From the IMG/VR virus record IMGVR_UViG_2703718837_000001: a stretch of DNA of 49,704 bases; one strand, 5' to 3'. This document shows positions 1 to 1,440 of the stretch, piece by piece. Numbering within the stretch: position 1 is the first letter of the stretch; each line of letters opens with the position of its first letter. The notes under the pieces were generated by a model. The model was given only the letters and a program-made list of their open reading frames with translations, had not been told where the DNA came from and searched no databases. The translations under genes were made by a program, and so were the position numbers. The DNA comes from a virus. Lineage: Duplodnaviria > Heunggongvirae > Uroviricota > Caudoviricetes.

Positions 1-529
1 CGGCCAGCAGAAGCGCGCGCTCAGCGGTGTTCATGTAAAGCACGGAGTCCGCCAGCGTGACATCCCCGCCCTTGTTGTTCATGGACAACACATCACCTGC
101 AACGGTGGTGTTGAAGGTCGCAGTGCCACCGGCAGCCGTGCGCTGGTCAGAGAAGCTGTTGATGTTTGTTCCGGCAGAGCGGTTGGTGTTAAAGGTCAGC
201 CCTTTTGTGAAACCAGCCTCTGCTGTGCCCAGGTTCAGGTTACTGACAGCCGCCGTCCAGGTACCGTCATCCTGACGGGTGCCGAGCACACCATATTTTT
301 TGGTGGTGTTGTCACTGGTATAAGCCCCGGCACTGCCCAGGAACAGGCCGTCAGACGCGGCACCACCGGTGGCCACAGCTGTGTTCAGGTCAGAAGCGCT
401 GGTGTAGGCCGTCAGCTGATTATTTACTGCCAGCGCCGGCGCACTGAGTGCTGCCATCACCGCCAGCGTGACCAGTTTTACTCTGGCTGCACCGGGAGAA
501 ATCCGGTGCTTTACAGAACAAACACGCAT
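1..529 (-). CDS. Secreted surface protein, fimbrial- or adhesin-like (partial, 3' end beyond window)
   Basis: ATG at 529-527 preceded by GGAGA; translation MRVCSVKHRISPGAARVKLVTLAVMAALSAPALA (signal-peptide-like) then Thr/Gly/Asn/Ala-rich sequence; open frame to window edge; GC-rich unlike its neighbours. No Cys pair typical of chaperone-usher pilins, so family is uncertain. Confidence 0.5.
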   Translation of the reverse strand, partial: MRVCSVKHRISPGAARVKLVTLAVMAALSAPALAVNNQLTAYTSASDLNTAVATGGAASDGLFLGSAGAYTSDNTTKKYGVLGTRQDDGTWTAAVSNLNLGTAEAGFTKGLTFNTNRSAGTNINSFSDQRTAAGGTATFNTTVAGDVLSMNNKGGDVTLADSVLYMNTAERALLLA

Positions 530-879
530 TTGAAAGTCTCCATTGTTTTGTGACGTAAAATAATCTTGAATAAAAATCAAATTCCCAGGATAGTCCTGGT
601 GAAAGATTATTCACGGAGTATCTTATATTGTTTCCTTAAACACTTTATAGCAAAAACACAAAAATAGGATTTTTACAGTTTAAGAGTTTTTCTCCCTCCA
701 CTATTGTTAAATACATGAGGTATGTCAGATGCCTCTTGCTGATAAAACTCACCAAATAACAATAAAAAAACCATATAAACAATGAAGCATATCAATTATT
801 CCAATATGCTTTATCTAATTTTTTTATTTGAAAAGTAAAATTTATTTCTTATATTGAAAAAAAACAAAAGGAGGAAATA

Positions 880-1440
880 ATGATACGGCGGTATATCACA
901 ACTACTGAGTGGCGTGCTGTACTTAATTCTGTATCCGGAAAACATAAAGAAAGAGATCGTTGTATTATTTACATGATGTTTACTCATGGTCTACGTGTGT
1001 CTGAAGCCACTCAACTAAAACTAAGTTATCTGGATATAGAATCAAAATCCATATATATTCATCGTTTAAAGAATGGTTATTCCGTTAGTCATCCAATTCC
1101 AGTAGATGAAATGAAATTGCTGAAGCAATGGTTGTCGCGAAGAAAAGAATATAAAGGTAGTGAAAAAAGCGACTACCTGTTTATATCTGATGGTGGAGGT
1201 CGTCTCACAAGACAACGTATATATGATATAATAAAAAAATGTGGTAAGAAAAGCGGCATAACTCATCATATACATCCACACAAGTTCAGGCATGGATGTG
1301 GATTTGCCTTAGCAGAAAAAGGTATTGATACGAGACTGATACAAGATTACCTTGGCCATCGTAACATTCAGCACACGGTGCACTATACTCAAAGTAATCC
1401 TAGTCGATTTAAAAGAATATGGAATCCTCACCCTGAATGA
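880..1440 (+). CDS. FimB/FimE-family tyrosine recombinase (fimbrial-switch type)
   Basis: 186 aa; strong AGGAGG-type RBS; C-terminal HPHKFRHGCGFALAEKGIDTRLIQDYLGHRNIQHTVHYT matches the FimB/FimE catalytic region (R..H..R..Y). AT-rich gene. Confidence 0.85.
   Translation: MIRRYITTTEWRAVLNSVSGKHKERDRCIIYMMFTHGLRVSEATQLKLSYLDIESKSIYIHRLKNGYSVSHPIPVDEMKLLKQWLSRRKEYKGSEKSDYLFISDGGGRLTRQRIYDIIKKCGKKSGITHHIHPHKFRHGCGFALAEKGIDTRLIQDYLGHRNIQHTVHYTQSNPSRFKRIWNPHPE

Follow-up and report, generated by a model that had tools for sequence, protein, structure and literature searches.

The left end of a 49,704-nt viral DNA stretch (IMG/VR record IMGVR_UViG_2703718837_000001; the whole stretch is called the window here) carries a FimB/FimE-family recombinase gene that is transcribed away from the gene of a secreted surface protein. 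The original prediction held that the AT-rich spacer between the two genes contains an invertible promoter. We compared the locus with relatives retrieved as contigs, which are given L-numbers below (L001 is NZ_CP075374.1 from E. coli no107). The features of the window are listed in Table 1.

Table 1. Features of the locus in window coordinates
Feature	Position	Strand	Basis or remark
5' end of the gene of an 801-amino-acid classical autotransporter: 176 codons, the first 34 for the signal peptide	1-529	-	translation; runs off the window start
AT-rich (27% guanine plus cytosine, GC) divergent intergenic spacer, 350 bp	530-879		between the autotransporter and recombinase genes
CATTGTTT, left arm of the best candidate inverted repeat	541-548		partner AAACAATG at 777-784
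Short GC-rich hairpin followed by a T-rich tail, putative autotransporter 5' leader	585-599	-	sequence
Promoter-like CTGACA-17-AATAGT facing the autotransporter gene	700-728	-	9/12 consensus match; such sites are as numerous as in shuffled sequence; a lead only
Two overlapping promoter-like sites (TTGAAA-16-TATATT and TTGAAA-16-AATAAT), poly-A tract (857-864) and GGAGG ribosome-binding site	828-881	+	upstream of the recombinase gene
FimB/FimE-family tyrosine DNA invertase, 186 amino acids, 'B-type'	880-1440	+	catalytic residues intact
Two adjacent perfect hairpins with 14-bp and 20-bp arms	1443-1514		IS200/IS605 end structure; likely terminator of the recombinase gene
IS200/IS605-family tnpA pseudogene	1562-1884	-	in-frame stops, 16-amino-acid deletion, frameshift
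P1 pap remnant, first 9 codons (TTG start, MSIFNKHAH)	2160-2187	-	right-hand cargo/backbone junction
P1 pmgS, first intact backbone gene (context only)	2260-3522	-	P1 comparison

The module was placed in its full context through public assemblies that encode the exact recombinase protein. Ten long contigs share the same arrangement and make the complete module visible: P1 doc, phd and lxr, two adhesin genes, the spacer, the recombinase gene, about 700 bp without long open reading frames (ORFs), and then pmgS with the remaining backbone. The gene order in full-length copies is lxr, the inverse autotransporter and autotransporter genes (both read leftward from the spacer), the spacer, the invertase gene (read rightward) and a dead IS200, followed by the pap remnant and pmgS; contigs L002-L005 are copies with the full island. 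About 9.4 kb of foreign DNA (L003 1833-11278) stands in place of about 3 kb of P1 DNA in the lxr-pmgS interval, and the P1 genes replaced are hot, upfO/N/M, pmgV/U/T and pap except its first 9 codons. Three of the replaced genes carry a putative morphogenetic annotation in P1. The P1 backbone is collinear on both flanks of the cargo, with doc to lxr at L003 1-1832 and the pap start, pmgS and the genes beyond from L003 11279 onward. In the window, homology to P1/P7 starts only at about 2144-2160. The GC content is 58.8% in the autotransporter part, 26.9% in the spacer, 36.7% in the recombinase gene and about 48% in the adjacent P1 backbone. The window region is the right-hand end of an adhesin island of about 9.4 kb, carried as cargo by a P1-like phage-plasmid. 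The original prediction, which stressed the sharp contrast in GC content and placed the module outside the phage backbone with phage-plasmid cargo as one possible origin, agrees with these results.

According to the annotation of the P1 record, both flanks of the interval are 96-98% identical to the surroundings of an EcoDXXI hsd locus on a plasmid; the lxr-pmgS interval is thus a place of cargo exchange among P1-like elements. Other P1-like cargo regions (such as SJ46, RCS47 and hsd loci between phd/doc and pmgT) likewise hold foreign genes in the doc-pmgS interval, but the cargo of the window differs from them in consisting of two adhesins and a Fim-type invertase. Window positions 1-2143 gave no megablast-level match in any PLSDB plasmid or INPHARED phage, and the module was present in 0 of about 670 P1-related PLSDB plasmids and 0 of 19 P1-related phage records. 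Neither PLSDB nor INPHARED nor any of 5,426 complete E. coli genomes contains the exact recombinase protein, yet it was indexed in 127 blocks of the assembly collection, a count that is biased by retrieval through exact protein identity. The lineage carrying the module is recurrent but rare.

The surface protein was identified through its full-length copies (L003 7244-9649, L004 and L005), which encode 801 amino acids and share about 99% identical DNA with the window over the overlap. As predicted originally, the protein starts with a signal peptide, which is a typical N-terminal Sec signal by inspection of the translation (MRVCSVKHRISPGAARVKLVTLAVMAALSAPALA, followed by VNN), and the mature part in the window is rich in Thr (15%), Ala (15%), Gly (12%) and Asn (10%). 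Profile searches detected the C-terminal 12-strand beta-barrel translocator domain of classical autotransporters in the full-length copies, beyond the end of the window (PF03797, 4e-39; TIGR01414, 172 bits against a cut-off of 16). The window surface gene thus encodes a bona fide type Va (classical) autotransporter. The second adhesin of the cargo is an inverse autotransporter of 1727 amino acids with LysM, IAT_beta, Invasin_D3 and Big_1 domains, and its gene lies 80 bp downstream of the autotransporter gene. In one copy (L002 9527-9536, equivalent to about window 345-405), a 61-bp deletion in the passenger region of the autotransporter splits the gene into ORFs of 721 and 77 amino acids. With this deletion excluded, about 3% of the sites in the 5' passenger part (window 1-529, L002-L011) are variable, compared with 1.3% in the dead IS200; this higher polymorphism points to either recombination or diversifying selection acting on the exposed domain.

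The recombinase was then compared with protein families. Residues 6-175 match the Pfam family Phage_integrase (PF00589, E=2e-46), and the protein, whose 186 amino acids lie within the roughly 180-200 of this type of invertase, consists of the catalytic domain only. The top NCBIfam matches are the FimB/FimE models named 'tyrosine-type DNA invertase', NF007370 and NF007371, with 209.3 and 203.7 bits. These scores lie below the curated subfamily cut-offs of 221 and 222, and the next-best family is far lower at 120 bits. XerC and XerD models align to the protein only through their C-terminal halves. In an alignment with FimB-named relatives, to which the recombinase is 54-57% identical, the residues R39, K64, H134, R137, H160 and Y169 are invariant. 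The nearest relatives form only two clusters, with 99% and 79% identity, and all others have at most 57%. Judged by its sequence, the window recombinase is a divergent branch of the FimB/FimE family with predicted inversion activity, so that the 186-amino-acid FimB/FimE-type enzyme with its catalytic block was correctly recognised in the original prediction. Among other elements, similar invertases (at most 54% identity) adjoin adhesin operons on IncF plasmids in PLSDB. A scan of the genome-contig collection with the recombinase gave only distant matches (23-28%), two scans of the viral-contig collection found nothing, and no phage genome proper in INPHARED encodes a close Fim-type invertase. 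A 48% match in phage GER2 was rejected as a phage-borne invertase: it sits in host DNA beyond attL.

Among complete E. coli genomes, similar DNA occurs only in strain no107 (NZ_CP075374.1, 69.7-79.2 kb). Its chromosome carries a pair of autotransporter and inverse autotransporter genes that is 94.8% identical to the cargo pair over 7.3 kb, and the annotated autotransporter gene has 96% nucleotide identity to the part in the window. Upstream of the no107 autotransporter gene lie about 500 bp of non-coding DNA and, beyond that, two invertase genes. The gene of invertase A points toward the autotransporter gene; that of invertase B, the orthologue of the window recombinase, is divergent. Like the window protein, the B orthologue scores just under the NCBIfam cut-off, while invertase A scores above it. 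About 17 further copies of this type (L016-L032) were found in isolates and metagenomes. The no107-type locus contains a 13-bp perfect inverted repeat, with the arms TGAACCAAAGTGT and ACACTTTGGTTCA, around 219 bp (L001 8782-9026, and likewise in L016-L018 and L020-L032); a repeat of this length was reached by 0.4% of composition-matched shuffles. The second arm lies 7 nt past the stop codon of invertase A, and a 31-amino-acid leader ORF followed by the autotransporter gene lies on the other side. In the most divergent lineage (L017/L030/L032), both arms have changed together (G>A and C>T, giving GAACCAAAATGT and ACATTTTGGTTC), and the repeat stays perfect. These findings give good support to a fimS/ipuS-like architecture in the no107-type element, which appears to be an undescribed, predicted Fim-type switch. 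The order of parts is that of fimS and ipuS: the 3' end of a recombinase gene, a first repeat, about 220-300 bp, the other repeat, a leader and then the adhesin gene. We found no paper describing either the phage-plasmid module or its chromosomal relative. The chromosomal relatives predict a fourth kind of E. coli Fim-type switch, one that would control a pair of autotransporter and inverse autotransporter.

The DNA between the two divergent chromosomal invertase genes exists in two unrelated versions (L001 9584-9776 versus L017 3065-3285, with L018 and L030-L032 as further cases). They are sharply delimited by the first codons of the invertase A gene on one side and by the invertase B ribosome-binding site on the other, and neither is an inverted form of its counterpart. 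Exchange of regulatory segments has evidently been frequent in this family of loci.

The window shares with the no107-type island the adhesin pair (about 95% identity) and the orthologous divergent B invertase; it differs in what lies between them. Homology to the chromosomal type covers window 1-549 and ends abruptly 20 nt upstream of the autotransporter start codon. The 31-amino-acid leader ORF, the 13-bp repeats with the 219-bp segment that they enclose, and invertase A are all missing from the window. We searched window 1-2300 for the 13-bp repeat of the relatives and found no match within 2 mismatches, and its 12-bp core gave only chance-level matches and no pairs. Within the spacer, positions 530-549 are common to the chromosomal relatives, and positions 753-879 have weak similarity (63%) to the DNA upstream of the relatives' invertase B. 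Positions 550-752 had no homologue on either strand in complete E. coli genomes, PLSDB or the chromosomal loci. Because the adhesin genes are about 95% identical while the recombinase diverged anciently (synonymous divergence, dS, about 2.3), the phage-plasmid module is a mosaic joined at 549/550. The two adhesin genes were probably acquired recently from a chromosomal no107-type island. Everything upstream of 549 would then have been exchanged, with loss of the switch, the leader ORF and invertase A, and with unrelated AT-rich DNA and a diverged B allele in their place.

The absence of the partner invertase and of the switch raises the explanation that the remaining invertase is a functionless passenger, left over from a two-invertase switch locus and heading for decay like the IS200. 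Its score slightly under the subfamily cut-offs, the dead IS200 directly downstream and a variable homopolymer in the promoter or leader region of its gene fit this explanation, which we consider unlikely. The ORF is intact with all catalytic residues present, and the exact protein occurs in the 127 collection blocks mentioned above, with the same bias in the count. Between the recombinase and no107 invertase B, identity is 75% at the nucleotide level and 75-79% at the amino-acid level, with a non-synonymous divergence (dN) of 0.17 and a dN/dS of about 0.07. Compared with L015, a 96%-identical variant of the module, the recombinase gene has 4 synonymous and 1 non-synonymous changes, whereas the flanking non-coding DNA differs by about 6%. 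These values point to evolution of the recombinase under strong purifying selection. The homopolymer in question is the poly-A tract that separates the predicted -10 box of the recombinase gene from its ribosome-binding site. This tract ranges from A7 to A9, with or without a C in front, among copies that are otherwise 99% identical. This variation could tune the expression of the recombinase or could be that of a neutral homopolymer.

To place the locus among known systems, we compared it with described Fim-type switches. In the fim system, the fimS switch has 9-bp repeats, spans 314 bp, lies 3' of the recombinase genes and targets chaperone-usher fimbriae. The window recombinase resembles the fim recombinases in size and catalytic residues as well as in identity. 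Its neighbours, however, belong to the type V secretion adhesins, and the locus has no fimS-like repeat; a search of the window for the fimS repeat gave only chance-level matches and no pairs. Among described systems, ipuA/ipuB-ipuS-ipuR-upaE of uropathogenic E. coli CFT073 comes closest, and fim and the plasmid fimbrial switches are more distant. The ipuS element of CFT073 has been shown experimentally to be a 260-bp element with 7-bp repeats in a 317-bp spacer, and the 3'-terminal part of ipuA contains one of these repeats (Battaglioli et al. 2018, PMC6083910). In both loci, Fim-family invertase genes adjoin an autotransporter adhesin operon across a spacer of about 320-350 bp. A LuxR-type regulator gene stands between the ipu switch and the autotransporter gene, whereas the window has no regulator gene. 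The window locus also differs in its single invertase gene with the 5' end toward the spacer, in the lack of an above-chance repeat and of a second observed orientation, in its location on a phage-plasmid and in the inverse autotransporter gene that follows the autotransporter gene.

We then examined the spacer for the repeats that an invertible element would need. The longest perfect inverted repeat has 8 bp (window 470-940, arms 80-700 bp apart), a length that was reached by 85-92% of shuffles. The best candidate pair, 541-548/777-784, can be extended to 15 of 19 matches, and its left arm overlaps the ribosome-binding region of the autotransporter gene and the homology break at 549/550. This left arm is polymorphic among the copies, with G>C at 545 in two, a deletion of 546 in one and T>G at 547 in three, while the right arm is unchanged. 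Such uncompensated change is the opposite of the pattern at the chromosomal repeat, and we judged the pair to be a chance match. Two 10-bp repeats around the recombinase gene (860-869/1550-1559 and 804-813/2094-2103) were also rejected: their number is that expected of AT-rich DNA, and each has one arm in the IS200 remnant or the junction. Among the copies, the spacer is the most variable segment, with 6.3% variable sites, compared with 1.3% in the dead IS200 and 0.5% in the recombinase gene; the last value is forced low, since an identical recombinase was the basis on which most copies were retrieved.

The orientation of the spacer was determined in all copies of the window arrangement. All 12 independent copies were collinear, that is, eleven further copies, including L015, matched the orientation of the window. 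No inverted copy was seen in these 12 window-type loci or in the roughly 17 chromosomal-type loci. Two 51-kb Logan contigs, L002 and L004, run through the whole spacer uninterrupted. Three other, independent Logan contigs break near the homology boundary: L015, which recurs in five samples, and L016 start at the window equivalent of 520 and L033 stops at 549, which places a branch of the k=31 graph at 549/550. We considered these breaks as a read-level sign of inversion and rejected them, since an inversion between the 8-bp pair would give a branch at 548/549. The position 549/550 is the exact point at which the two locus types diverge, and also that of T4/T5 run variants in the chromosomal type, so that co-occurring locus types (or the T4/T5 run variation) are the simpler explanation. 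In addition, six window-type contigs stop within the first 1.5 kb of the autotransporter gene. These ends, together with the start of L015, fit the possibility that the same genomes also carry the adhesin locus a second time, on the chromosome.

These results bear directly on the idea that an invertible promoter with 7-8-bp repeats occupies the spacer, alone or together with a few bases of either gene, and that the neighbouring invertase turns it to switch expression of the autotransporter, and perhaps of the inverse autotransporter, ON and OFF, in the way that ipuS switches upaE. A Fim-family invertase gene does adjoin an adhesin operon here, the 350-bp non-coding spacer is within the size range of known switches, and the chromosomal relatives of the same adhesin have a switch architecture. 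There are several inverted repeats of 7-8 bp, two of which do not vary among the copies, and the arms of the 541/777 pair flank the promoter-like sequence at 728-700, which is directed toward the autotransporter gene. Nevertheless, no repeat exceeds chance, the best pair has a polymorphic and uncompensated arm, none of the 12 copies is inverted, and the unbroken contigs and the position of the graph branch speak against inversion. Far from being conserved, the spacer varies more than any other segment. The switch in the fim, ipu and no107-type loci also adjoins a recombinase gene at its 3' end; in the window, it is the 5' end that faces the spacer. We regard this idea as improbable: an invertible promoter at 530-879, the central claim of the original prediction, is unsupported but not disproved, and as far as assemblies show the spacer has a single orientation and no flanking inverted repeats above chance.

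A further explanation is that the recombinase serves the mobile element, through integration and excision of the cargo or resolution of plasmid multimers, and not the control of expression. The tyrosine recombinase gene does lie close to the cargo/backbone junction, and the sharp breaks at 549/550 and at the invertase ribosome-binding sites show repeated exchange of regulatory segments. The enzyme is of the FimB/FimE type, however, without the N-terminal core-binding domain that Cre, XerC/D and phage integrases have. No direct repeats occur at the ends of the cargo, which are an IS200 remnant on the right and the lxr stop codon on the left, and the alternative intergenic versions are unrelated to each other, being neither inversions nor permutations. 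P1 already has Cre-lox as its dimer resolution system. Such a role is highly improbable.

The explanation that we favour, with somewhat better than even confidence, is that the autotransporter gene is read from a fixed promoter and that the invertase is an intact orphan without an adjacent cognate site, acting only elsewhere if at all. A fixed promoter in the exchanged spacer would drive the autotransporter gene and probably also the inverse autotransporter gene, and the sequence at 728-700 is a weak candidate for it. AT-rich DNA at other E. coli adhesin genes is silenced by nucleoid proteins, and the autotransporter promoter would probably be under ordinary silencing of this kind, like other AT-rich adhesin promoters. 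One such case is the control of FdeC by H-NS (cited in PMC6714894).

The invertase may act in trans on Fim-type switches of the host, such as the no107-type adhesin switch, fimS, hyxS or ipuS. IpuA, IpuB, FimE and FimX all invert ipuS, a documented cross-activity of Fim-family invertases on switches that do not adjoin their genes (PMC6083910). Action in trans is our best guess because there is no credible adjacent site and because Fim-family invertases act on one another's switches.

Several points weigh against a fixed promoter and an orphan invertase. The promoter candidate for the autotransporter gene is a weak consensus match that occurs at chance frequency. No copy has a change in the 7-8-bp pairs 571-578/668-675 and 512-518/927-933, and ipuS works with 7-bp repeats, a length that is indistinguishable from chance in DNA with 27% GC. 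As assemblies record the orientation of the majority, an element that flips rarely would appear fixed, and the roughly 17 chromosomal copies with a good inverted repeat are likewise all in one orientation. The signal of purifying selection is mostly older than the capture by the plasmid, as the plasmid lineage has only 5 substitutions (4 synonymous and 1 not). Finally, we infer both the co-residence of the cargo with a chromosomal switch and the action in trans.

If the invertase does act in trans, lysogeny would alter the switching of host surface structures. A more far-reaching form of this proposal, which we find decidedly doubtful, is that a temperate phage-plasmid brings in a trans-acting invertase along with its two adhesins, that lysogeny resets the chromosomal surface switches, so that the mobile element would reprogram the phase-variable surface of its host, and that the phage-plasmid's own adhesin has been freed from phase control. 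If there is no action in trans, the locus would be a natural case of an adhesin that escaped phase control through replacement of its promoter. P1-type phage-plasmids are known mainly for carrying resistance and defence genes, and the module defines a recurrent P1-type lineage with two type V adhesins and a phase-variation enzyme.

The AT-rich stretch downstream of the recombinase gene (1443-1905) is a decayed, non-functional IS200/IS605-family element. At the nucleotide level, annotated IS200/IS605 tnpA genes are 70-79% identical to window 1560-1904, and an IS200-family copy is homologous to the window from 1444 onward. A tblastn search with an IS200-family transposase against 1884-1562 gave 47% identity over 105 residues (E=6e-22), interrupted by stops. 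The hairpins at 1443-1514 were considered as recombination sites for the invertase and rejected, as they belong to the IS200 end. An Rfam scan of window 1-2400 gave zero matches. Within the second hairpin, the C-run at 1479-1485 varies from C5 to C8 among the copies. In L015, the loop of the first hairpin (1457-1459) reads GAA instead of TTC, the reverse complement, as if the palindrome had flipped. The same contig continues from the window equivalent of 2087 into a sequence (L015 1573-1601) that has up to 26 copies per E. coli genome; this repeated sequence is probably the end of an insertion sequence and would account for the contig end.

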